DNA from: a virus
Taxonomy: Duplodnaviria > Caudoviricetes
Length of the DNA stretch: 24,680 bases
Virus record (IMG/VR): IMGVR_UViG_3300038675_000256
Coordinates: 1 to 24,680 of that record
Reading direction: 5' to 3' (one strand)
Positions 1,861-22,186 of the stretch are shown here, one piece after another (positions within the stretch are counted from its first letter, which is position 1; each line of letters begins with the position of its first letter). The notes beneath the pieces were generated by a model. The model was not told the origin of the DNA. It did not search any database and saw only the letters and a list, made by a program, of their open reading frames with translations. The position numbers were made by a program, and so were the translations under genes.

Positions 1861-2622
1861 ATGTCCGATAAAAGTGGAATTCAATGGTGCGATGCAAGTC
1901 TCAATTTCGCCACAGGGTGTACTCGTGTCAGTGCAGGTTGTGCGAATTGTTACAGCCTTGACCGCACGATCCCGCGCCTTCAGGCAATGGGGCAGGAGAA
2001 GTACCGGAACGGCACGAAGTTCACCGTGCATCCCGAAGTCATGTACGAGCCGCTGAAGTGGAAGAAACCCCGGCGGATCTTTGTCAATTCTGTGAGTGAT
2101 ACGTTCCATGAAGAGATGCCGGCTCAGACACTATTCGGATTCTTTCAGGAAGTCGTATCAAAATGTCCACAGCACCAATTCCTACTGCTAACAAAACGTG
2201 CACAACGGATGAACGACTTTTTCACAGCATGGCCGAACTATCTTCTTTCAAATGTCTGGATCGGAGTTACGGCTGAGAATCAGAAGATGGCGGACGAACG
2301 ATTACTCCTCCTGAAAGACATTCCCGCAAAGATCCGGTTCGTCTCGGTGGAACCCATGCTCGGCCCCGTGGATCTCTCCGCGTATGCTGAATGGCTGGAC
2401 TGGATTATCATTGGAGGAGAGTCCGGCCCAAAGCAGCGCGTGATCCCATTCAAGTACGTGCAGGATCTCGTTTATCAGGGAAAACAGAGGGGTATTCCGG
2501 TCTTCCTGAAACAAATGCATGATGGGGAACGGCTTGTCAAGGAACCTTATATCTGGATCCCGGGCGAGACGGAGCACAAGCAGTACCTTGAATATCCGAG
2601 TGATGCCTATGCAGGACGCTGA
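1861..2622 (+). CDS. DUF5131 / phage Gp37-Gp68 family protein (radical-SAM-like)
   Basis: Family-typical motifs SGIQW, GCTRVSAGCANCY, IFVNSVSDTFH, LLTKR, NVWIGVTAENQ, RFVSVEPMLG, WIIIGGESG, FLKQ. Confidence 0.92.
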   Translation: MSDKSGIQWCDASLNFATGCTRVSAGCANCYSLDRTIPRLQAMGQEKYRNGTKFTVHPEVMYEPLKWKKPRRIFVNSVSDTFHEEMPAQTLFGFFQEVVSKCPQHQFLLLTKRAQRMNDFFTAWPNYLLSNVWIGVTAENQKMADERLLLLKDIPAKIRFVSVEPMLGPVDLSAYAEWLDWIIIGGESGPKQRVIPFKYVQDLVYQGKQRGIPVFLKQMHDGERLVKEPYIWIPGETEHKQYLEYPSDAYAGR

Positions 2623-3310
2623 AATCCTTTTTGTTACAGAGGTTGGAAGTCGCATGTGGGGCATGGAAAAGTTCGCCAGCGACTATGACTTGTTCCACTG
2701 TTACCAGCAGCCGGCTGGGGAATATCTCCGGACAAGCACGTTCGAGAAAAGCCGGCCGGCCAAGACATTTACGGCAGATGCAGAGTATCTGACGATCCCC
2801 GTTGGTGCAGAGATTGACGCTCAGTACATGGAGATCGGCCACCTTGTAAATCTACTCAAGAAAGGGAACATCAATATGATATGGGCTGTCTGTTCAGGAG
2901 TGATCCGGCAGGACAACCCGGTACTCAAGGAATTGAGAAGCATTACGCTCAATAACCTCTCAAAAGCCACATATCAATCCATTAAGGGCATGGCATTATC
3001 GGCATATGCTGATGCAGATATCCGGAAGGCTGTGCGGGATCCAGAAAAGAGCCTTTGGACATGCCGGAGAACGCTCGAAATGGGGGATTCTCTTCTTCTC
3101 GGGGGCGGTGTTGATTTCTTCGTTGTCACTCGAATGTCTCACGGCAGTATAACGAAAGAGTATTGCCAAGAGGCATTCGCGAAACTTGAAAGGTCATATG
3201 CCCTCTCGAAGTTGCCAGACCTCCCCGATCCTGTGCCGTTTAATGATTTCCTCTTCCGGATCCGGATGAAAGAGATCCTTGACAATCACATTTCCGTCAA
3301 GGTGAAATGA
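2609..3310 (+). CDS. Pol-beta-superfamily nucleotidyltransferase, RlaP/YcgL (T4 NrdC.11-like) family
   Basis: GSRMWG...SDYD (GS-x-DxD signature), later LLKKGNIN and C-terminal SKLPDLPD...NDFL; GAGTGA RBS before ATG 2609. Confidence 0.82.
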   Translation: MQDAEILFVTEVGSRMWGMEKFASDYDLFHCYQQPAGEYLRTSTFEKSRPAKTFTADAEYLTIPVGAEIDAQYMEIGHLVNLLKKGNINMIWAVCSGVIRQDNPVLKELRSITLNNLSKATYQSIKGMALSAYADADIRKAVRDPEKSLWTCRRTLEMGDSLLLGGGVDFFVVTRMSHGSITKEYCQEAFAKLERSYALSKLPDLPDPVPFNDFLFRIRMKEILDNHISVKVK

Positions 3311-6947: not shown

Positions 6948-7193
6948 ATGAGCATCAACAGTAATTTCGGGATTCCCGATGATCGGGCGAAAGAGATTAC
7001 GAAGGAGTATGCAGGGATTATCAAACCGATCTTTGAGTCAGGCAAGATGTCCGGCTCTGCTACCCTTAAGATTATCATGGGTATGCAGCTGACAGATCAG
7101 GAACGCACATGGCTGGCCTATCATGTCGGCGGCATCAATGCCATGATCCTCTACGGGAAGACCAAGGGGAAGAAGATTATCATTAACTGGTGA
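6948..7193 (+). CDS. Hypothetical protein
   Basis: AGGTGA RBS, 81 aa. Confidence 0.65.
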   Translation: MSINSNFGIPDDRAKEITKEYAGIIKPIFESGKMSGSATLKIIMGMQLTDQERTWLAYHVGGINAMILYGKTKGKKIIINW

Positions 7194-7196
7194 GCC

Positions 7197-7352
7197 ATGA
7201 ACGAGTACCACTCCAAAGCCGCTGGGTGTATCTATCGCGGTAAAGAGGGAATGGTAATCAGGGGCGTCCGGCTCTGTGCGATCGCTGATTCTATCGGGGA
7301 TTGTGAAGAACTACGCAGGAAAGGACTATGCAAGCGAGGTTTTAACCGATGA
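7197..7352 (+). CDS. Small Cys-containing protein (51 aa)
   Basis: GGTGA RBS; four Cys; translated by hand. Confidence 0.5.
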   Translation: MNEYHSKAAGCIYRGKEGMVIRGVRLCAIADSIGDCEELRRKGLCKRGFNR

Positions 7353-7495
7353 AACGATGCGGCAATTGTGCCAGATCGGCATTCATATGGAAATGCTGGC
7401 CGCCTTTCTGGTGGTGCGGCAAAGAGGGTAAAATAACGATCTGGAAACGGATATTGGTTATTATGGATGGGTGCAATTATTGGTGGAAACGCTGA
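7349..7495 (+). CDS. Small Cys/Trp-rich protein (48 aa)
   Basis: ATGA overlap; MKRCGNC...WWC...DGCNYWWKR. Confidence 0.5.
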   Translation: MKRCGNCARSAFIWKCWPPFWWCGKEGKITIWKRILVIMDGCNYWWKR

Positions 7496-7510
7496 CTGTA
7501 ACAATCCCCA

Positions 7511-7536
7511 TACCTTTAAGCAATACCTTTAAGCAA
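7511..7536 (+). promoter_or_regulatory. Tandem 13-bp repeat (TACCTTTAAGCAA)x2 with two TATA-like TTTAAG boxes; probable promoter of the tRNA cluster
   Basis: Exact duplication at 7511-7523 and 7524-7536 in an AT-rich gap 35 nt upstream of tRNA-Thr. Confidence 0.55.
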
Positions 7537-7571
7537 TAGCATGAATGAATTAATTTAATCAATGAAGCTAA

Positions 7572-7705
7572 GCCGGTGAAGCACCTGTTGGTTCGGTGCG
7601 TCCAGCCTGTAGAATCCCACGATGCGGTGATCACGTAAACCTCCGGGCGACGGGTCGGGGATTCGGGAAACTGGAAGGGCGCAGGTTCGATTCCTGCCGT
7701 CGGCT
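7572..7705 (+). tRNA. tRNA-Thr(UGU) with a 58-nt intron (7612-7669) at canonical position 37/38
   Basis: Acceptor GCCGGTG/CGTCGGC plus U73; D stem GCAC/GTGC; anticodon stem TCCAG/CTGGA; T arm GCAGG-TTCGATT-CCTGC. Perfect BHB: CCTG/CGGG helix, TAG and AAA bulges, AATCCC/GGGATT outer helix. Spliced loop is CC-UGU-AA. Confidence 0.88.
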
Positions 7706-7706
7706 C

Positions 7707-7728
7707 TTACCCGGTGCACCCCGGGTAA
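7707..7728 (+). repeat. Inverted repeat / hairpin in the tRNA trailer
   Basis: TTACCCGG (7707-7714) pairs with CCGGGTAA (7721-7728). Confidence 0.6.
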
Positions 7729-7825
7729 AAAAAGCCGTGAGTTATCCAGCTATCACGTTAATCACCGCGCTGGCGTGATGGAAATGACCATCTATGCCGG
7801 ATACGCTCAAAGCCGGCAATTCAGA

Positions 7826-7915
7826 GCAACCGTGGAGTAGTGGTTAATCTCGCCCTCGCTTGAGAGGGAGGAGGGTCGCGCCCTCATTTCGTTGGTTCAA
7901 ATCCAACCGGTTGCA
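7826..7915 (+). tRNA. Class II tRNA-like RNA, Ser(UGA)-like, with an aberrant anticodon arm
   Basis: Acceptor GCAACCG/CGGTTGC plus A; D arm GAG-TAGTGGTTAAT-CTC; long variable arm GAGGG-TCGCG-CCCTC; T arm GTTGG-TTCAAAT-CCAAC. The CT-TGA-GA loop sequence is present but its stem pairs poorly. Confidence 0.75.
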
Positions 7916-7916
7916 T

Positions 7917-7969
7917 GAGGCTCTGCTTGGGTTCGGTACCGCTTTACCGGATCAGCATCCTCTTATTTT
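7917..7969 (+). terminator. Long hairpin followed by a T-rich tract; possible end of the first RNA transcript
   Basis: GAGG/CCTC, TGCT/AGCA and GGTTCGGTA/TACCGGATC pairings, then TTATTTT. Confidence 0.45.
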
Positions 7970-7977
7970 CGACTGTA

Positions 7978-7994
7978 ACAAAGTTATTTATACT
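7978..7994 (+). promoter_or_regulatory. Archaeal BRE/TATA promoter for the Y-RNA/Ro unit
   Basis: Purine-rich ACAAAG followed by TTTATA (7987-7992), about 26 nt upstream of the 5' end of the RNA at 8018. Confidence 0.6.
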
Positions 7995-8017
7995 TTAATG
8001 ATAAAGATAATTATCAC

Positions 8018-8084
8018 AGGGTTGCGTTGAGAACGGTTACTTCTACTTGCTTAAGAAAAATTACCGTTCTCGCTTGATCTCCCT
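8018..8084 (+). ncRNA. Minimal Y-RNA-like (Yrl-like) RNA, putative Ro-binding domain only
   Basis: AGGG/CCCT terminal stem, internal loop TTGCGTT/GCTTGATCT, 8-bp stem GAGAACGG/CCGTTCTC, then TTACTTC and a short hairpin. A paralogous domain sits at 8133-8188 and the Ro gene is adjacent. Confidence 0.7.
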
Positions 8085-8105
8085 TACCATCTTAAGATTA
8101 TCATT

Positions 8106-8230
8106 GTGGCTGTGGGGTAGCGGTTATCCTGATAAATTTCCGCCGTCGCCTAATCTCCCTCACGGGCTGCGAAGACAGCGGTTACTTCGCTCTGGACGAA
8201 TCGACCCGGGTTCAAATCCCGGCGGCCACA
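8106..8230 (+). ncRNA. tRNA-Gln(CUG) body with a ~53-nt Y-RNA-like domain inserted in the 5' anticodon-stem strand (tRNA/Y-RNA chimera)
   Basis: Acceptor GTGGCTG/CGGCCAC plus A; D arm GGG-TAGCGGTTAT-CCT; anticodon hairpin TTCG-CTCTGGA-CGAA; variable loop CGAC; T arm CCGGG-TTCAAAT-CCCGG. The insert 8133-8185 folds as CCGCCGTC/GACAGCGG and CCC/GGG. Confidence 0.8.
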
Positions 8231-8300
8231 TCCAGTAGAGCAAGTAGAATTCCGGTTGCCGATCTCCGGGATCCGGTTATTTTCAAATGAGACCCCAAGT

Positions 8301-9818
8301 ATGGGAAAACTTAACAAGAAAACCAGCATCGGAGAGAAGATCCTTTCACGTTCCGATGTGGCCCTCAATGAAGAGGGCGGTATTGCATTCCGACCAACTG
8401 CCAAGACTGAGCTGATGCTCCGGACAGTCAGTTCGTTGATTTCAGAGGACGGCTTCTATAAATCCGGCAAGGATCTGGATCAGGATCTTCAGAACCTCAT
8501 CTCAGGGATTGCATTTACGGAACCCGAGTTCATCCTGAAACTTGCCCTGTATGCTCGTACGCAGATGTACCTCCGGACGGCCCCCGTGGTGCTTATGGCA
8601 GAGTTCGCGCTTAGTGCTGGCCGCGGGAAGGTACCGAATGCCCGAAAGTATCTGGCCGCGACAATCCAGCGGGCAGACGAGATCACGGAACTGATCGCAT
8701 ACGTGATGGCGCAGAACAAAACCCGGAACGCCTACAAGGGCAAGATCCCGCAGATTGTCAAACATGCCGTAGCGGATGCCTTTGAGAAGTTCGATGCCTA
8801 TCAGCTGGCCAAGTACAACCGAGAAGGCGAAGTGACCCTCCGCGATGCCTTGTTCATGTCACACGCCAAGGCAACCGATAAGAACGCCGAGGCGCTGGAT
8901 GCACTCGTAAAGGGCACGCTTGCCCCGCCTGAGACATGGGAAGTTATGATCTCCACGAAGGGAAGCACGAAGGAGAACTGGGAGAGCGTAGCTCCAAAAA
9001 TGGGGTATATGGCTTTGCTCAGAAATCTCCGGAACTTCCTTGACAAAGGCGTTGAAATGAAACCAATCCTCACGCGGATCGCGGATCCCAAAGAGGTTGC
9101 CAAGTCCAAGCAGTTCCCGTACCGGTTCGTGAGCGCCTACAAGGAACTGGAAAACCGCAGCGATGCCAGCAAGACCCTTGATGCCCTTTCGGATGCCGTT
9201 GAGCTGAGCGTGCAGAACATCCCCGAGTTCACCGGCAAGACGTTCGTTACCTGCGACATCAGCGGATCCATGTCCTCAACGGTATCTGGGAAGTCCAAGA
9301 TGGAGATGCGAGAGATCGGGTGCCTGTTCGGTGCGATCATGCACAAAAAGAGCGAAGATTCGATTGTATCGGTATTCGCTACGGATCACGTTCCGGTCAG
9401 TCTCAGCTCCCGGGATTCGATCTTCACCAACATGAACAAAATGCTCCGGCAGAACACGCACGGATGTAACACGGATGCCTACAAGGTGATGAACTGGCTG
9501 AATGACAATAAGGTCTTTGTCGACCGGATCGTGCTGTTCAGCGACATGCAGTGCTATTCCAGCGATGCAAAATCATCATACCGGTACAATTCCACAGACA
9601 ACATTTACGCTGGTCTCGTGAAGTACCGGCAGACCGTCAACCCCAACGTGTTTGTCTACTCGTTTGATCTTGCCAACTACGGAACCACGCAGTTCCCGCA
9701 GGACGATTCCCGCGTATGCCTTGCAGGAGGATTCAGCGATAAGATCCTGTCGTTCATCCCAATGTTCGAGCGCAGCCGGGCGGATATGCTGGCTGAGATC
9801 GAATCAATCTCAATCTAA
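8301..9818 (+). CDS. rsr: Ro60/Rsr ribonucleoprotein (TROVE domain plus vWA domain)
   Basis: NEEGGIAF, PEFILKLALYAR..LRTAP, IQRADE, FDAYQLAKY, TLRDALFMSH, PETWE, MGYMALLRNLRN, SKQFPYRF; vWA MIDAS DISGSM, VLFSDMQ, GGFSDK. ATG 8301 preferred over TTG 8256. Confidence 0.95.
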   Translation: MGKLNKKTSIGEKILSRSDVALNEEGGIAFRPTAKTELMLRTVSSLISEDGFYKSGKDLDQDLQNLISGIAFTEPEFILKLALYARTQMYLRTAPVVLMAEFALSAGRGKVPNARKYLAATIQRADEITELIAYVMAQNKTRNAYKGKIPQIVKHAVADAFEKFDAYQLAKYNREGEVTLRDALFMSHAKATDKNAEALDALVKGTLAPPETWEVMISTKGSTKENWESVAPKMGYMALLRNLRNFLDKGVEMKPILTRIADPKEVAKSKQFPYRFVSAYKELENRSDASKTLDALSDAVELSVQNIPEFTGKTFVTCDISGSMSSTVSGKSKMEMREIGCLFGAIMHKKSEDSIVSVFATDHVPVSLSSRDSIFTNMNKMLRQNTHGCNTDAYKVMNWLNDNKVFVDRIVLFSDMQCYSSDAKSSYRYNSTDNIYAGLVKYRQTVNPNVFVYSFDLANYGTTQFPQDDSRVCLAGGFSDKILSFIPMFERSRADMLAEIESISI

Positions 9819-9823
9819 TTTTT

Positions 9824-9896
9824 GTTGCGGTAGGGTAGTGGCCTATCCTCGGGCGCTTGGGACGCTCGGACGCCGGTTCGACTCCGGCCCGTGACA
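9824..9896 (+). tRNA. tRNA-Pro(UGG)
   Basis: Acceptor GTTGCGG/CCGTGAC plus A; D arm GGG-TAGTGGCCTAT-CCT; anticodon arm GGGCG-CTTGGGA-CGCTC; T arm GCCGG-TTCGACT-CCGGC; starts 6 nt after the Ro stop codon. Confidence 0.9.
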
Positions 9897-9945
9897 TCCA
9901 TTTAACCGATATCTATATGTTACAGGCAGTTACAAACAATAATCC

Positions 9946-10194
9946 ATGCGAGAAATCGGAAAGGAGGGCCGTGTTGCTCGGCTCTCAAAAGCATCATGGA
10001 ATATTACCATTCCGTACGACTCTGATCCAAATCAGGCCATCCTGAAAATGCAGGCGCGGATCGCTGAGCTGGAGAACCAGAAGGCACCGGCGCCCGTGCA
10101 GCAAGCCGCGCACGGCTGTAACTTCGATGAGAAGAAACTAAAGGAAACGATCAAGGATGCTGTGGAGGAGGCCATAGCCCCATTCACCAGCTGA
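9946..10194 (+). CDS. Small coiled-coil hypothetical protein
   Basis: 82 aa; AILKMQARIAELEN heptads. Confidence 0.6.
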   Translation: MREIGKEGRVARLSKASWNITIPYDSDPNQAILKMQARIAELENQKAPAPVQQAAHGCNFDEKKLKETIKDAVEEAIAPFTS

Positions 10195-10360
10195 CGATCG
10201 ATCATGGAAATAAAAATCAGGAAACCCGGACGTATGCCCTCATCTCCATTATCTCTTGAGCCGTATCTTGAGATCCTGCGTGAGCATGTGACCGGGAGTA
10301 AGAAAGGCAGCATCAGAAAATATACCAAGATGAAAATCAAGAAACTCACGGAAGATCCAC

Positions 10361-11115
10361 ATGCCACGGAAACCCAAAGCCGTAAGAAAAGAGGAGCCGG
10401 TATCCCCGGCAAACCCTCCCCAGCCTGAATATTTAAATCTCCCTCCGATTGTTCCAAGAATATGTGAATACTGTGGAACAACGTTTGAAGTACCGCGACA
10501 ACAAGTGATAAAAGGAAGGGGGAAATTTTGCTCAGGGTGTTGTAGGGCTAAAGCACAATCGGCCACCATTATAAATTATAACAAATCGGAAATATGCCGT
10601 GAGAGAACAGCATTGCGTAATAAAGACCCAGCATTCAGAAAGAAAGTATCGGCTGGGTTAAAAAAGAGAAAAGAACGGCTTGGTGATGATTATCATTCAG
10701 TTTCGGCAAAAGCAAAGATCGGCAATGCTACAAAGGCTCGTTGGAATGACGTTCGTTCAAAGATTCTGCCCGTTTTAATTTGGAATGGCCAATCTTTACG
10801 AAAGAAAGATAACTTCCCATACGGCCATCAATGGAGATTCGTGAGCAAAAAAGCAAGAGAATTATCAAAATATTGTTTCAGATGTCTATCAAGTAAAAAT
10901 CTAGTTGTACATCATATTATCCCGGCTAGATTTGGGGGCAAAGCGGAATTAAACAATGCACTAGTTTTGTGTTCTCATTGTCACCCGACAGTTGATCGGC
11001 AAGCTCTTATTTTGTATGATATATTTAAAGACTGGGAGAAAACACGGGCGCTCCTCAAGGAACGGATTGCGCCAGTTGCTACTATAGCAATCGCAAAAAC
11101 AGTTTATGGGAGTAC

Positions 11116-13428: not shown

Positions 13429-14040
13429 ATGCCCGAACCGTGGGAACGCCAATCCGCAGAAACAAACAAGGCATGGAACGCCTTTCGCATTTACCGCGAT
13501 ATGGATCCGGCTGAACGGTCAACGGAGAAAGTGCGGAAAGTTATCGGCTGTAACACTGCCCGGCATCTTGAAACGTGGTCATCACAATACGATTGGGTAT
13601 CCCGGGCCGGTGCCTACGACGCCCATATGGACGAACTCAAGCGGAACCAGCGGGAGCGGGAGCGGCTGGCGGCATCCGAGCGGCGGATCCAGTTAGCCAA
13701 GAACATGCAGCTGGTGGGCGGTGCCAAGATACAGGAGATCGGCAAGAAGATCCAAGACGCTCTCTCGAAGGGCGAGGCGTTACCGGCGATATCATTGAAG
13801 GACGCTGCGGCCCTGATCGACGCCGGGGTCAAGTTGGAGAGGTTGGAGGCGGGCCTGACCACGGGGAATACCGGTCTGATGGGTGCGGATGGCGGGCCCG
13901 TGAAGGTCGTACATACCTACGTGCTGGTGGATGGCGTGAAGCCTCCGATGAAAGAAATTCCGGCCCCACAGGAAGCCGCAATTACCAAAAGTCCCGAGAG
14001 AATTTTGAGCATTAAGCGAAAGGAGCCTGAAACGGAGTGA
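13429..14040 (+). CDS. terS: Terminase small subunit (probable)
   Basis: PWERQ..E...AWNAF..YRD and WS..YDW..RA.AYD HTH-type N-terminus, coiled coil, GADGGP tail; directly upstream of terL. Confidence 0.72.
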   Translation: MPEPWERQSAETNKAWNAFRIYRDMDPAERSTEKVRKVIGCNTARHLETWSSQYDWVSRAGAYDAHMDELKRNQRERERLAASERRIQLAKNMQLVGGAKIQEIGKKIQDALSKGEALPAISLKDAAALIDAGVKLERLEAGLTTGNTGLMGADGGPVKVVHTYVLVDGVKPPMKEIPAPQEAAITKSPERILSIKRKEPETE

Positions 14041-14046
14041 TCTGAA

Positions 14047-15324
14047 CTGCAAGAGTTACTACCGGGAGCCGGCCCCAATCCCCGCGTTCGGAAGTTCTGG
14101 GATTTCTTCCGGGATAATCAGGATGTCGAAGAGTATATCCTGTATGGCGGATCCGGGGGGAGTAAAAGCCATTCAACCTGCCAGTATCTTGTAGAACTGC
14201 TGTTTACGGTTCCTGACATTACCATCCTCGTTACCCGCAAGACCCGCCCGGCGCTGAAGGCAACCACATGGCTGATGGTCTTAGATATACTGGATGCTGA
14301 TGGGTATGAGGTCGATAAGGATTACACGCTGAATAAAACTGATCTGGAAGTTCATGCCGGTAATAACGTCATGCGGTTTACCGGACTGGACGATCCGCAG
14401 AAACTCAAATCATCCAGTTACAATTACGCTTACATCGAAGAGATCACCGAATTCTCATCCGATGACCTGTTCTTTATCACTAACACGCTCCGCCGGCCCC
14501 GGACGGATGGGAAGAAAAACCAGTTGTTCATGACCTTCAACCCCGTTGCCGAATCTCATTGGGTATGGCAGGAAAAGGTCTTGGCGCGTGATCCGGTAAA
14601 GTCTGCGTTAGTCCACAGCACACATTGGGACAATCCCTTTTTGCCGGATAGTTACCGTCAGAATCTTGAAGGGTTGGTCTCAAAGAACGTGAACCTGTAC
14701 CGTGTCTATACGCTCGGTGAGCCCGGAGTGCTGGAAGAGTTAATCTACAGCAACTACGATATCGTCCGGAACTATGACGAGATCGAACCGGAATCATTAA
14801 GTTACGGGCTGGATTTCGGGTTTAACCATCCGACGGCGCTGGTAGAGTGTAAGATGCGGGACGGAGAGCCGTATATCCGGGAACTCATTTACCAATCGCA
14901 CCTGACGAATACGCAACTGATCGATCTCATTAAGCAGCGGGTGCCGGATACGAAGAAACGGTTCTATTGTGATTCCGCCGAACCGGCCCGCATCCAAGAG
15001 CTGAGGATGGCGGGGATTAATGCAATGCCGGCTGAGAAGAACGTGATTGATGGGATCAACCATCTCAAGACGCTGAAACTCCACATTGATTATCACTCCC
15101 CGAACCTTCAGAAAGAGATCCGGCAGTATTCTTACGTCAAGAAAGGGGATATCGTGCTGGAAGAGCCGGTTAAGTTCTATGACGATGCGCTGGACGCCAG
15201 CCGGTACGTTATCTTCTCGCAGCGCATGACAGGACGGCAGCCGTTCCGGTCAGCGGAGATTAAACGGGCGCTGAACCCCAGTGTTACAGCCCTGAAATTC
15301 AAGTTCGGTCAGGTTGGCCGATAG
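14047..15324 (+). CDS. terL: Terminase large subunit (PBSX-like); start probably non-canonical (CTG 14047)
   Basis: Walker A LYGGSGGSKS lies upstream of the track ATG (14275); Walker B YAYIEE, TFNP, STHWDNPFL; nuclease motifs GLDFGF, DSAEP, DDALDASRY. Confidence 0.92.
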   Translation: MQELLPGAGPNPRVRKFWDFFRDNQDVEEYILYGGSGGSKSHSTCQYLVELLFTVPDITILVTRKTRPALKATTWLMVLDILDADGYEVDKDYTLNKTDLEVHAGNNVMRFTGLDDPQKLKSSSYNYAYIEEITEFSSDDLFFITNTLRRPRTDGKKNQLFMTFNPVAESHWVWQEKVLARDPVKSALVHSTHWDNPFLPDSYRQNLEGLVSKNVNLYRVYTLGEPGVLEELIYSNYDIVRNYDEIEPESLSYGLDFGFNHPTALVECKMRDGEPYIRELIYQSHLTNTQLIDLIKQRVPDTKKRFYCDSAEPARIQELRMAGINAMPAEKNVIDGINHLKTLKLHIDYHSPNLQKEIRQYSYVKKGDIVLEEPVKFYDDALDASRYVIFSQRMTGRQPFRSAEIKRALNPSVTALKFKFGQVGR

Positions 15325-19117: not shown

Positions 19118-22100
19118 ATGAGACAAATACGCAACAAAGCACCGAGACCGGGCCAGAGTGACCTTTCGGGGTCAATGGCAGTACCGTATCCGGCCCAGAA
19201 TCCGCCGGGCGCACAGCAGGATCCCAATCTGGGAAACATTGCCGGGCCGCCCGGATCAGAACGGACATCCGCATTGACGGTGAACAATCCAGCCGGAGCG
19301 ATTCAAGCCCATCCCCCGCAGGGATTCGGGGCACCTGAACGGATCGACCGGGGGGATGAACAAGGTGTCATCTTCCTGAGCAACTTCGGGAACTATTACC
19401 GCGTACCCAAGTACACGACGTCTATTATCAGGAAATATCAAGACAATGTTTATGCAGCAGGGATCTACCACAAGCAGCGCCATATGCTGTTCCGCGAGAA
19501 GTATGAGATCATCGTTCATGATCCGGACGGCGAGACTGACACGGACGAATGCACGGCAATTGTCAACGATATGGTCAAGATGCTGGATGCCGTGATGGTG
19601 CAGCCGCATACCTACGGGTTACAGGCCGCTATCGAGATGTCATGGGCTGACTGTTTCTGGTTCGGGATCTCGCTCTATAATCCTGTCTGGGCATGGATCG
19701 ATCAAAACGGTGCAGAAATCCGGATACGACCGATAACTCAAAAGGCTGACGGAACTGGTGCAACATCGTACTGGGTGTGGCTGGATTCAACAGGCAAAGT
19801 CACAAAAGCCGAAAAAGCAGGCGAGTTATCACCTGTAACAAATATGTGGGATAACGATGTATGGGATCCGACACTCCGGGAAGAGAATATCCATTGGGTT
19901 GATGAAGATGACCCTGTGGCTATCACAAATGCGCTTTCCGGTGCGGAATATCATCTGATAAAACTCCGACACCTCCCCGCCGAATCCTTCGGCACGCAAC
20001 CCTATGGCCGCCCGTTCCTGTATTCGGATATCATGCAGGGGATTGTCATCAGTCCCTATGATGGATCCGTGGAATACTTCCAGACGCTCTACATGCCGCA
20101 GAACAACGCTCCGCCGGGCCCGGTAGTCAGTACCCAGTTCCTGCAAACCAAATTGACCAACATTGTGACGATCAAGGATCCCGCCTTCCCTGATCTCGCG
20201 GGCAAACCTGTGATGTTACCGATCTTCCCGCTGATCGCCATGCTGGATTTCACATGGCAGGCACAGGTTCAGCGGGTCAATCGTATCGGTGCACCTATCC
20301 TGTTCCTCAAGATCATCAACCCGCAGGGGAACGATATTGAATACGGCCAGCTGCTCCTACAGAACTGGGGCAAAAACTCAGGGTTCCAGCTGAGAGCGAA
20401 CTTCGAGATCATTGAGCCGGGCATACAGGATTCCGGATCAGCACTTGAAACGATCGATGCCCTGAACAAACTCATCACCCAGTACTTCAACCCGGCCAAC
20501 CAAGTCCAGCGGAGCGAGAACGCGCCGTTAAGCGGGGCGTCCGGTAGTGAAAAAGAGATGGTGGACGATTACACCCGGAACGTGCATTCATGGCTTGAAA
20601 CTCAGTGGTCACACATCCTACAGGAATACCTTGATGTGAACGGCTATGAGGGGTATACGGTTGAGGTAGACATCCCTGATCCGAGCATCGATCGCAGTAC
20701 CATTGAACTCCAACAGGCTGACAAACTGTTTACCACCAAGACCGGCCTGCCGAACGAGATCCGGAAGAAACTCGGTGTTGATGAACTGGATGAAGCGGGT
20801 CTTGCGGAACTCAAGGAGTACTATGCGTCCTTACCGCAACCGTCACCCTTCGGGGCATTCGGGGGAGCCGAGCCGGCCCAACCCGGCGCAGAACCGGGTA
20901 AGGAGCCAGTACCGCCCGGCCCGGAAGAAGGAGCCGAGCCGGCTAAGGGTGAAACACCGCTTATGCAGAAAGCCCGGTTGGCCCTTGAAGCCGTGCGGGC
21001 GGATGAACTGAACCCCGACCGGTACGTGGAGGACGACAAGGTCAAGAAGATCGTGAATGCCGCGCTGGATGAAGGATCGGCGTTCCCGCAGGATCCCACT
21101 GATACCACGGAGAATATCGGAGGGAGCGGGATCACACAGGCGGCATTCTGGCCGTCAGCCGGGGAAGTCCCGCAGGACGTGATCAAGATCCTGACGGAAT
21201 CCTACCAGTATGCCAGCAGTGCGTCCAAGTTCCCCCCGGATTCCGCTGATCGGGACAGGGAAGCTCGGGAATACGCATGGCAGGCGGTTGCGAAGGCCGG
21301 ATGGAAGAAAACAGAGGCGGGTTGGGTACAGACTGCCGGAATCAATGCCGCCGGGGGAATTGAATCAGTAAAGAATGCTGAAGAAAATGGCGACTGGATC
21401 ACTATCCGGGGAACTCATGTGTTTGTAGGGGAAGGCGAATCGAAATCCGAAGCTTTCAAGGACACTACGGGAAAATCTCTGAAAGGCGGGTCATCAAAAC
21501 CAGCACCGAAAAAAGAAGCAGCACCTACTAAAGCAAAACCGGCTGAAAAACCATCGGCAAAACCCGCCGCCCCATCAGGATCTCTGGATACTGATAAAGC
21601 GTTGGTCAAATCAATGGCAAAATCCAACAATAAAACCGTTGGTGAAAAGGCGGCAGCAGAGACGGAAAAGAATCTCTCCGATCATCAGGCATATGGGAAA
21701 TCCGATCTTGTCCAGAATAGCGACGCCTTGGCAGATTATACCTCAAGTGGTTACACTAAGACAAACGCCGATCTCCGATCTGGTAAGGTAGGGAAAGGCG
21801 TCACGGAGATCGATAAAATCATTGCTGGTGCTCCCGCTCTTCCAGAAGGCACAACGTTATACCGCGGGATTGGCGGGAACAGCGTGGCAACCATGATGAA
21901 CATGCAACCCGGTGATACCTGTAACGATAAAGCGTTCCAATCTTTCTCAACCAGCCCATTTACGGCAAGTTCATTCTCGGCGATGGGAGGAAGTGATGGG
22001 AAAGACAAGGTGATTTTCAGGGCTGTAACTTCCGGAAAGGAGAAGGGACTTGTTATTGGAGGCGGGGAGCACGAAGTTATCATGCCTCGCGGGCAAGGCT

Positions 22101-22186
22101 GGAAAGTCGTATCGAATAACGCGGTAACAACTGGCGTACATGCAGGGAGAGTTACAACGCATGTCATTACGGTGGTGCCGGCATGA
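19118..22186 (+). CDS. Probable portal protein fused to ChaB-like, WITIRG-motif and C-terminal ADP-ribosyltransferase (VIP2/Alt-like, R-S-E) domains
   Basis: The first ~570 aa are portal-like by position and pattern (this part is inferred). ChaB-like VPQDVIKIL...AWQAVAKAGWKK..W at ~21165-21330. ART motifs DYTSSGYTKTNADLR, LYRG, FQSFST and EHEVIMPRG are clear. Confidence 0.75.
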   Translation: MRQIRNKAPRPGQSDLSGSMAVPYPAQNPPGAQQDPNLGNIAGPPGSERTSALTVNNPAGAIQAHPPQGFGAPERIDRGDEQGVIFLSNFGNYYRVPKYTTSIIRKYQDNVYAAGIYHKQRHMLFREKYEIIVHDPDGETDTDECTAIVNDMVKMLDAVMVQPHTYGLQAAIEMSWADCFWFGISLYNPVWAWIDQNGAEIRIRPITQKADGTGATSYWVWLDSTGKVTKAEKAGELSPVTNMWDNDVWDPTLREENIHWVDEDDPVAITNALSGAEYHLIKLRHLPAESFGTQPYGRPFLYSDIMQGIVISPYDGSVEYFQTLYMPQNNAPPGPVVSTQFLQTKLTNIVTIKDPAFPDLAGKPVMLPIFPLIAMLDFTWQAQVQRVNRIGAPILFLKIINPQGNDIEYGQLLLQNWGKNSGFQLRANFEIIEPGIQDSGSALETIDALNKLITQYFNPANQVQRSENAPLSGASGSEKEMVDDYTRNVHSWLETQWSHILQEYLDVNGYEGYTVEVDIPDPSIDRSTIELQQADKLFTTKTGLPNEIRKKLGVDELDEAGLAELKEYYASLPQPSPFGAFGGAEPAQPGAEPGKEPVPPGPEEGAEPAKGETPLMQKARLALEAVRADELNPDRYVEDDKVKKIVNAALDEGSAFPQDPTDTTENIGGSGITQAAFWPSAGEVPQDVIKILTESYQYASSASKFPPDSADRDREAREYAWQAVAKAGWKKTEAGWVQTAGINAAGGIESVKNAEENGDWITIRGTHVFVGEGESKSEAFKDTTGKSLKGGSSKPAPKKEAAPTKAKPAEKPSAKPAAPSGSLDTDKALVKSMAKSNNKTVGEKAAAETEKNLSDHQAYGKSDLVQNSDALADYTSSGYTKTNADLRSGKVGKGVTEIDKIIAGAPALPEGTTLYRGIGGNSVATMMNMQPGDTCNDKAFQSFSTSPFTASSFSAMGGSDGKDKVIFRAVTSGKEKGLVIGGGEHEVIMPRGQGWKVVSNNAVTTGVHAGRVTTHVITVVPA

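Follow-up and report, generated by a model that had tools for sequence, protein, structure and literature searches.

A Ro60 gene and adjacent Y-RNA-type genes, one of them shaped as a tRNA, in a tailed virus with a probable archaeal host

The Ro60 gene and its stand-alone Y RNA

The window analyzed in this work is the entire virus record IMGVR_UViG_3300038675_000256, a stretch of 24,680 bp whose + strand holds nearly all genes. It carries at 8301..9818 a Ro60 gene accompanied, on the same strand, by two Y-RNA-type genes, one standing alone (Y1, 8019..8083) and the other shaped as a tRNA-Gln (RNA C, 8106..8230). Particles of Ro60 and Y RNA have been described in animals, bacteria and bacteriophages. 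For archaea and archaeal viruses, the earlier record is that of the protein gene without RNAs, in HGTV-1, in the Asgard 'Nidhogg' viruses and in Borgs. A preliminary description of this DNA had reported an intact TROVE-vWA gene flanked by five structured RNAs in a genome provided with terminase genes. All five RNAs are real according to Rfam, ARAGORN and folding, and the Pfam and PHROG scans of the window, the former taking in 36 open reading frames (ORFs), located a small terminase gene at 13429-14040 and a large one at 14275-15324; the record is treated here as viral.

The Ro60 gene starts with an ATG and encodes 505 amino acids (aa). Its product matches the TROVE (PF05731, E 3.5e-36) and vWA_Ro60 (PF25045, 2.2e-11) domains as well as the 'RNA-binding protein' family phrog_850 (4.1e-59). 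Among PDB chains, phmmer retrieved TROVE 9l5y (1e-29), Rsr 2nvo (5.5e-6) and Ro60 (7.7e-5). The metal ion-dependent adhesion site (MIDAS, DxSxS ... T ... D), whose DISGSM segment is encoded at 9255-9272, is preserved: in an alignment of 27 sequences D319, S321, T391 and D415 are invariant and S323 is nearly so. The unbroken frame, the domain matches and the conserved MIDAS confirm that 8301-9818 is an intact Ro60 ortholog.

The alignment of the DNA upstream of Ro in the window and in related loci (L005, L004, L006, L003, L080 and L036) brings out a conserved element, designated here as the Y module, which is seen twice in full. Its first strand reads GGG-(U/C)UGCG(A/U)(A/U)-stem-UUACUUC and its second strand stem-GC(C/U)U(A/G)AUCU-CCC. 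The modules of Y1 and RNA C both lie on the + strand, 70-280 nt upstream of Ro. When the pattern of the 5' strand was searched in 163 sequences totaling 1.12 Mb, 208 matches were found on the strand of Ro versus 27 on the opposite one. In the 82 metagenomic or viral loci of this set, the Ro strand contains 1.41 matches/kb in the 1 kb upstream of Ro, 0.35 in the 1 kb downstream and 0.03-0.04 inside Ro or more than 1 kb away, the density on the opposite strand being 0.01-0.06/kb. The enrichment on the strand of Ro, at 1 kb or less from the gene, is 25- to 50-fold. The 80 bacterial loci taken from GTDB show 0.42 matches/kb in the 1 kb upstream and 0.29 in the 1 kb downstream, with a match at 1 kb or less from Ro in 32 of them. 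A partner strand giving a perfect 8-bp stem follows the motif within 110 nt in 95 of 207 instances and precedes it in 12 (one of the 208 instances was left out, being too close to the start of its locus). The association of Ro with these RNAs, central to the preliminary description, is therefore present in the relatives as well, with a match on the Ro strand within 1 kb in 64 of the 82 metagenomic or viral loci.

In Y1, a stand-alone Y RNA resembling YrlB, both strands of the module form the 5' and 3' sides of a single hairpin. GGG and UUGCGUUGA lead into a 9-bp stem (8029-8037 with 8063-8071) closed by a UUACUUC loop, with UUAC at 8037-8040, and GCUUGAUCU and CCC come last. Its assignment relies on the fold (z = -2.5 for the minimum free energy, MFE), on conservation in L005, L004, L006 and L003, on the enrichment of the motif near Ro and on compensatory variants. 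Indeed, strains nearly identical to the window are present in bioreactor, wastewater, landfill and groundwater runs, which were examined as assembled contigs (X2-X5, X14, X19 and X20 probably derive from DNA). In the same contigs of X2, X3 and X6, 8030A>G is accompanied by 8070T>C and 8031G>A by 8069C>T, and these strain variants provide an independent support for the structure of the module.

The sequence TTATTTATAC at 7984..7993 (+) reads as an archaeal-type TATA box and is predicted to act as such. It sits 26-35 nt 5' of the start of Y1 and is kept as TTATAAATAC, at an equal distance, in L005 and L004. The preliminary description had also mentioned own promoters, a point supported in part: one good TATA box of archaeal type precedes Y1, the scan of the window yielding at 7984 its sole strong TATA-like match ahead of any feature. 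No sigma-70-like promoter was found on the + strand between 7400 and 10000, and neither sigma-70 promoters nor intrinsic terminators rise above shuffled sequences.

A Y module inside a tRNA-shaped RNA

RNA C (8106..8230, +), identified by the Rfam tRNA model, a dedicated covariance model and covariation, contains all four arms of a tRNA: acceptor, D, anticodon-like and T. Its acceptor stem is open, with 7/7 pairs (8106-8112 with 8223-8229) and a discriminator A, and its 7-nt loop CUCUGGA would present the anticodon CUG, replaced by UUG in the closest relatives. A Y module of 53 nt is placed between the D arm and the anticodon arm. It is composed of a stem (8140-8147 with 8174-8181), CCC at 8157-8159, a UCAC loop, GGG at 8164-8166, CUGCGAA and UUAC at 8182-8185. 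The order of the module is reversed with respect to Y1: the 3'-type strand (8140-8159) comes first, then the UCAC loop that caps the GGG/CCC helix, then the 5'-type strand (8164-8185). The complete RNA thus runs from the D arm through a linker, the 3'-type strand, the cap, the 5'-type strand, UUAC and a hairpin to the T arm and the acceptor. The succession of UUAC, hairpin and T arm recurs in 98 motif instances across the loci.

The Rfam tRNA model recognizes RNA C with 35.9 bits and a 66-nt insert. A covariance model of the embedded form, R1, was built, the corresponding alignment (A3) comprising 20 examples. Applied to A3, RNAalifold recovered the acceptor, the T arm, the stem of the module and its terminal helix, 20 of the 22 pairs showing double changes. 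R1 attributes 106.5 bits to RNA C and at most 47.6 bits to ordinary tRNAs. After realignment of 32 sequences to R1, 90.1% of the cells pair, versus 61.3% in shuffled alignments (0 of 500 reaching the observed value) and 39-51% when the partners are slid. In these 32 sequences the 8-bp stem of the module is 89% paired, with double changes at 7 of its 8 pairs, and the terminal helix 95.6% paired, with double changes at 3 of 3. The embedded form was found in about 25 relatives and in HGTV-1, whose gene 136 (70440-70571; L180:141-272, - strand) matches R1 along its whole length (62.6 bits, E 1e-16) and displays a Gln-like CUG loop.

The module occurs in bacteria too. In Nonomuraea (L144), a canonical YrlA gene located beside rsr reads GGUGCGAAGGCAACGGUUACUUC ... 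CCGUCGCCGACCUUGAUCUCGGG where the window reads GGGCUGCGAAGACAGCGGUUACUUC ... CCGCCGUCGCCUAAUCUCCC; from UGCGAAG to UUACUUC, 19 of 21 positions counted by hand are identical in L144 and RNA C. The RNAs of the two Nonomuraea loci (L144 and L155) consist of the Ro strand, UUAC, a small hairpin, the T arm, a closed acceptor-like hairpin, the D arm and a 3' strand ending in CUUGAUCUCGGG. This is the layout published for YrlA (Chen 2014; preprint 10.1101/312249), so that the module of the window can be equated with that of bacterial YrlA. With the YrlA of bacteria and phages, the window shares the location beside Ro on the same strand, a 5' strand of CGAAG type, the stem, the YUAY element (UUAC here), the small hairpin, the T arm, the D arm and the 3' strand CUUGAUCUC. 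YrlA, however, mimics a tRNA in circularly permuted form: the two ends of the RNA pair to make its Ro stem, its T arm precedes its D arm and a loop closes its acceptor stem. RNA C displays instead the order of a real tRNA, with an open acceptor, an internal Ro stem capped by UCAC and, after UUAC, a hairpin that is a regular anticodon arm of Gln CUG; the domain of its host, probably Archaea, differs as well. Read from its sequence, RNA C is a circular permutation of YrlA, in which the acceptor hairpin is opened and the Ro stem closed, giving a non-permuted YrlA. An end-formed Ro stem combined with a T arm before the D arm and a closed acceptor is found neither in RNA C nor in Y1, whose Ro stem does join both ends of the RNA in the absence of T and D arms. 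RNA C is consequently a variant of YrlA and not a strict member of this class. As for Y1, it has in common with Salmonella YrlB and the minimal Y RNAs a Ro-site stem and a small loop devoid of tRNA-like domain; like YrlB, it stands in tandem with a tRNA-like Y RNA upstream of Ro, the likeness being one of architecture alone.

Several observations speak against the assignment of these RNAs and have to be considered. The alignment of 32 sequences used for covariation was fitted to R1 and is biased toward the structure of this model. The 5' Ro site of YrlA is described as GNCGAA(N)G, together with a conserved YUAY, in Chen 2014 (PMC4201824), and the copies of the window match it only in the CGAAG core: 8167-8175 reads CUGCGAAGA, with a U in place of the expected first G, and 8022-8031 reads UUGCGUUGAG. 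The canonical actinobacterial YrlA of L144 reads UGCGAAG too. No Rfam Y RNA family was detected in 7000-10400, either at the gathering cut-off or with E up to 10, and none was detected in 18 related or bacterial loci. This silence is uninformative for the window because Rfam also missed the bacterial rsr loci. The tandem canonical YrlAs of Nonomuraea produce across their junction a false 'embedded' match of 75.9 bits, so R1 matches other than those of the window, its close relatives and HGTV-1 need to be checked case by case. RNA C itself is no such artefact: the stem of Y1 is unlike that of RNA C, and neither an acceptor hairpin nor a D arm occurs past 8230. Finally, the contigs of X13, the one metatranscriptome, cover 7492-7705, 8026-8438 and 9835-10089 at a depth of 4-7 and may come from DNA, and the single-sequence MFE of RNA C (z = -1.4) does not recover the structure supported by covariation. 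No spliced joint was seen in the contigs of the public runs, where neither uncovered parts nor the 7611-to-7916 joint (side 30) count as evidence.

The insert of RNA C could also be conceived as a non-canonical intron of an ordinary tRNA-Gln, its excision leaving a working tRNA and a separate, perhaps circular, Y-like RNA. Indeed, the removal of 8133-8185 leaves a regular cloverleaf with the 7-nt loop CUCUGGA and an A27-U43 pair, the anticodon-loop features CU-NNN-RA are present in 16 of the 20 rows of A3, and the neighboring tRNA-Thr does contain an intron with a bulge-helix-bulge (BHB) motif. The HGTV-1 copy, moreover, is annotated as 'tRNA Asp (gtc) + Intron' and not as a Y RNA. However, a BHB with flanking helices of 3 bp or more is missing around the insert both in the window copy and in 21 of the 25 members, and the four remaining members have a BHB near the insert at inconsistent positions. 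The succession of Ro motif, stem, UUAC, hairpin and T arm is also that of the unspliced bacterial YrlA. One metatranscriptome contig is unspliced across 8026-8241, a weak indication. An intron is therefore regarded as unlikely. Given this lack of a consistent BHB, the insert is probably retained in RNA C.

One contig of X13, of depth 4, joins the reverse complement of 8106-8123, the first 18 bases of the tRNA, to position 8230 onward, as in a fold-back at the acceptor stem (window 8225); it may be a cDNA artefact.

A mini hairpin, CCGG-UUGCCGAUCU-CCGG (8252..8269, +), recognized by sequence reading and conservation, lies 31 nt ahead of the ATG of Ro. Its loop joins the motifs of both strands of the Y module without the stem. 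It is kept in the five closest loci, including L005, L004, L006 and L003, and the helix of L004 has become CUGG/CCAG, a compensatory change, while its single-sequence fold is no better than that of shuffled sequences (z = -0.3). It might serve in the autoregulation of Ro or as a terminator, or be a relic. The possibility that it provides the module at 8164-8185 with another 3' strand was rejected; judged by eye, 5 of the 8 pairs would form in the window and 4 of the 8 in L005.

Copies of the motif were also observed near the Ro of known bacteriophages, four in Xanthomonas phage Tenjo and five in Streptomyces phage Alone3 (L177:1807-2350). Those of Alone3 precede Ro, and one is overlapped by gene 36 (2274-2347), a possible Y RNA annotated as tRNA-Ser(gct).

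Neighboring tRNAs, host and genome context

A tRNA-Thr(UGU) interrupted by a 58-nt intron (7612-7669) at the canonical position 37/38 occupies 7572..7705 (+), as determined with a BHB scan and ARAGORN. Its hBHBh' motif combines an outer helix which is the anticodon stem itself (UCCAG/CUGGA, 5 bp), a central helix CCUG/CGGG of 4 bp and an inner helix AAUCCC/GGGAUU of 6 bp, separated by two bulges of 3 nt each (UA|G and AA|A). The acceptor stem is GCCGGUG/CGUCGGC, and the D and T arms are present. The unspliced 3' part is given 17.2 bits by the Rfam tRNA model; splicing in silico, from the end of exon 1 at 7611 to the start of exon 2 at 7670, yields a 77-nt tRNA-Thr(tgt) according to ARAGORN. 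With its two 3-nt bulges, 4-bp helix and spliced cloverleaf, 7572-7705 belongs to the archaeal tRNAs with BHB introns, from which it differs by being encoded by a virus and by the oddities C33 and A8. In shuffled versions of the window, chance alone yields about 2.5 BHB-like motifs as strong as this one per strand, so the weight of the intron lies in its exact 37/38 placement and in the restored cloverleaf; simple arithmetic puts the chance of the central 4 bp and inner 6 bp at a given place at about 5e-5.

The next RNA, at 7826..7915 (+), is an aberrant class-II tRNA-like RNA (Rfam tRNA, 40.2 bits) with a long variable arm, a 5-bp anticodon stem and a 6-nt loop GCUUGA, which ARAGORN reports as 'tRNA-???' with a two-base anticodon. 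Its score with R1, 36.3 bits, falls in the range of ordinary tRNAs. No counterpart was found in the related loci beyond the T arm, and no convincing Y motif was found in this RNA or in the 58-nt intron of the tRNA-Thr. A 6-nt 'anticodon loop' is also attributed to Deinococcus Yrn1 in Chen 2014 (PMC4201824). On the other side of Ro, 5 nt past its stop codon, begins a tRNA-Pro(UGG) (9824..9896, +; Rfam 44.4 bits, ARAGORN); over 61 nt it shares 83% identity with a tRNA-Pro found in an archaeal genome of the L085 phylum. In the public runs, position 7611, where exon 1 of the tRNA-Thr ends, is joined in contigs of X2, X3 and X6 to 7916, the base directly past the class-II RNA (short side 30, weak), and other contigs diverge directly after 7705. 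The tRNA cassette 7612-7915 seems to vary among strains.

The archaeal signals mentioned in the preliminary description stand, and an archaeal host is considered quite likely because of the BHB intron at 37/38, the TATA box, the lack of sigma-70 sites on the + strand and the relatives of Ro and of the large terminase (TerL). The occurrence of near-identical strains in the bioreactor, wastewater, landfill and groundwater runs also counts in its favor. BHB introns are cut by the splicing endonuclease of archaea and eukaryotes, and no bacterial enzyme for them is known. The only named close relative of TerL is a protein from a Methanoregula metagenome-assembled genome (MAG), with 53% identity, and the best match of the window's Ro among 50,697 phage records is HGTV-1, a haloarchaeal virus. 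A scan of GTDB with the Ro alignment detected no close relative, the best archaeal hit being a 45% match in a Methanobacteriota MAG, on a partial contig of 2.6 kb.

The opposite view, a bacteriophage whose intron-like motif is coincidental and whose RNAs are ordinary phage YrlA and tRNA genes, finds some arguments. The closest named relative of Ro, P0004 (81% identical), is labeled as an Alphaproteobacteria MAG, the best TerL matches in the phage database belong to Firmicutes and Helicobacter phages (35-40% identical), BHB-like motifs occur by chance at the frequency given above, and the Y motif is common to bacteria. The search for the host by CRISPR spacer, suggested in the preliminary description, brought no support to an archaeal host either: neither a spacer nor a provirus match was found in 401 archaeal genomes of the phylum of L085, where the matches were limited to short tRNA and methylase segments and a single 31-nt match (G345) lay in no repeat array. 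The bin labels of MAGs are frequently wrong for viral contigs. The BHB is located exactly at 37/38 with the anticodon stem as outer helix and its splicing restores a tRNA-Thr; two further Ro-bearing contigs, L044 and L022, have BHB introns and two others, L011 and L082, contain an archaeal RNase P RNA. Together with the Methanoregula relative of TerL and the lack of + strand sigma-70 promoters, these features render a bacterial host very improbable and argue in favor of an archaeal one.

Many related contigs display large tRNA arrays around Ro, with 20-22 tRNAs in L011 and L031. The archaeal RNase P RNA genes (RF00373) of L082 (62 kb; 540-797, 174 bits) and L011 (16 kb; 2458-2723, 172 bits) are embedded in such arrays, immediately upstream of Ro; if the two contigs prove viral, RNase P RNA would be borne by viruses.

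Elsewhere in the window, the frame of the large terminase is open from about 14044 to 15324 and its first ATG, GTG or TTG comes only at 14275. Relatives of 412-419 aa align from 14074-14086, Walker A region included, which points to an atypical start codon or to an error in the sequence. At 19118-22186 is encoded a protein of 1022 aa with a C-terminal part weakly similar to ADP-ribosyltransferases (PF03496, 7.6e-5, under the curated cut-off; Alt-like phrog_802, 2.2e-5). A DUF5131 ('gp37/gp68') gene lies at 1855-2622, a few kb from Ro. Genes of this family are near Ro as well in L009:4570-5214 and L069:7121-7807, which represent the closest relative of the window with data, and a 'gp37' gene is near Ro in phage Tenjo (L178:1-133). 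DUF5131 may be a recurrent neighbor of Ro.

Predicted function and significance

The identity of the Ro/Y-RNA cassette is solid. That a tailed virus, likely of a methanogen, uses this Ro60 gene and its two adjacent Y-RNA-type genes to form a Ro-Y RNA particle for damaged or misfolded RNA is a prediction held with moderate confidence. The binding of Ro to the Y stem and of an effector to the tRNA-like module is established in Deinococcus and has been proposed for YrlA. By analogy, the UGCG(A/U)AG strand would dock on Ro, as GGUCCGA does in Xenopus, and the tRNA-shaped part of RNA C would be released by RNase P and tRNase Z. Once free, this part would link Ro to one of the host enzymes that deal with tRNAs (the RtcB ligase, the exosome or the CCA-adding enzyme, for example), and cleaved tRNAs would be mended or removed by the particle, perhaps as a counter-defence.

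The preliminary description had proposed a viral island of Ro60, Y RNA and tRNAs devoted to RNA surveillance or repair. The island itself stands, in a virus whose host is probably archaeal. As for repair, the Pfam scan of the window yielded none of the RtcB, Rnl/RNA ligase, Pnkp and Hen1 genes that it had suggested looking for, an absence that counts against such a role. It yielded instead, 5 kb upstream of the Ro cassette, a nucleotidyltransferase of the RlaP family ('RNA repair pathway'; 2519..3310, +, Pfam RlaP 4.4e-13), a possible functional partner of Ro by analogy with other loci. In archaeal hosts RtcB is the tRNA-splicing ligase, and a virus supplied with it by its host need not encode its own.

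The genomic context of other Ro genes is instructive in this respect. HGTV-1 (KC292026.1, 62-73 kb) shares with the window a TROVE protein (gp129, 32% identical), RlaP (gp126) and the 132-nt tRNA-with-insert; it differs by encoding RtcB (gp140) and by a genome of 144 kb compared with at least 24.7 kb here. Its RlaP gene (7.2e-36) is 650 nt from TROVE and its RtcB gene 4 kb further, RtcB, the Y-tRNA, TROVE and RlaP being all comprised within about 9 kb. In the 80 bacterial loci, RtcB is found within 4 kb of Ro in 8 cases and RlaP in 6. In the related loci, tblastn detected RlaP and RtcB only in those of bacteria, and DUF5131 in L009 and L069. The Salmonella rsr-yrlBA-rtcBA operon (PMC7790460) has in common with the window a Ro gene, two Y RNAs and the theme of RNA repair, and differs from it by the presence of RtcB, RtcA and RtcR; neither RtcB nor RtcA was found beside Ro among the ORFs scanned with Pfam. 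According to passages of 10.1101/2024.10.10.617714, which describe no RNA architecture, phage Bas63 likewise has a Ro60-like protein, gp130, whose gene directly precedes tRNA genes. This protein was shown to counter the Ppl defence, and the authors suggest that some of the adjoining tRNAs are Y RNAs. Bas63, however, infects E. coli, and the defence that it counters is thought to act on DNA.

In view of these data, the counter-defence or RNA-repair role put forward by analogy is only inferred. The cassette could equally be genuine without being a counter-defence, the Ro-Y particle serving general RNA quality control or the takeover of the host, for instance by steering a host exonuclease onto structured host RNAs, and the tRNAs supplementing translation. 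The evidence on function is equally compatible with such a role, which is retained as a tentative alternative. The specialization of PNPase for structured RNA decay by Ro and Y RNA in Deinococcus (PMC4201824), the insertion of Ro genes in the large tRNA arrays of related contigs and the lack of ligase or kinase-phosphatase in the window point in this direction. A role in repair or counter-defence is favored, on the other hand, by RlaP in the window, by the proximity of RtcB and RlaP to Ro, seen in HGTV-1 and in 6-8 of the 80 bacterial loci, and by the phage Ro60-like protein that counters a defence (10.1101/2024.10.10.617714).

The novelty of the locus is narrower than the preliminary description had estimated: Ro in archaeal viruses was already on record, as was Ro/Y RNA beside phage tRNAs, YrlA also occurring in phages next to tRNA genes according to Chen et al. 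2014 (RNA 20:1715, PMC4201824). The new part is the RNA architecture. Searches of the full-text literature, the supplements of Chen 2014 lying outside it, brought up no account of Y RNAs for an archaeal Ro and none of a tRNA that contains a Y module.

The partner RNAs of an archaeal-virus Ro can now be named, and one of them is a Y module set in an otherwise normal tRNA. This bears on the way in which Y RNAs arose from tRNAs, on the effector recruited by the tRNA-like part when PNPase is absent and on the reason why viral Ro genes sit among tRNA genes. Some viral tRNAs annotated as intron-containing or ordinary, such as gene 136 of HGTV-1 and gene 36 of Alone3, are probably Y RNAs. A bolder and speculative proposal is that archaeal tailed viruses use a chimeric class of RNA in which a tRNA body that can be processed and possibly charged (Gln in most cases, Thr and Glu in others) bears a Ro60-docking arm between its D and anticodon arms. 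Such an RNA might hand Ro60 to the host tRNA machinery or act as a bait for anticodon-directed nucleases, and it might represent a living intermediate between tRNAs and the permuted YrlA. HGTV-1 being cultured, the idea is directly testable. If it is true, Ro-Y particles would extend to the third domain of life, with HGTV-1 as a cultured test system.

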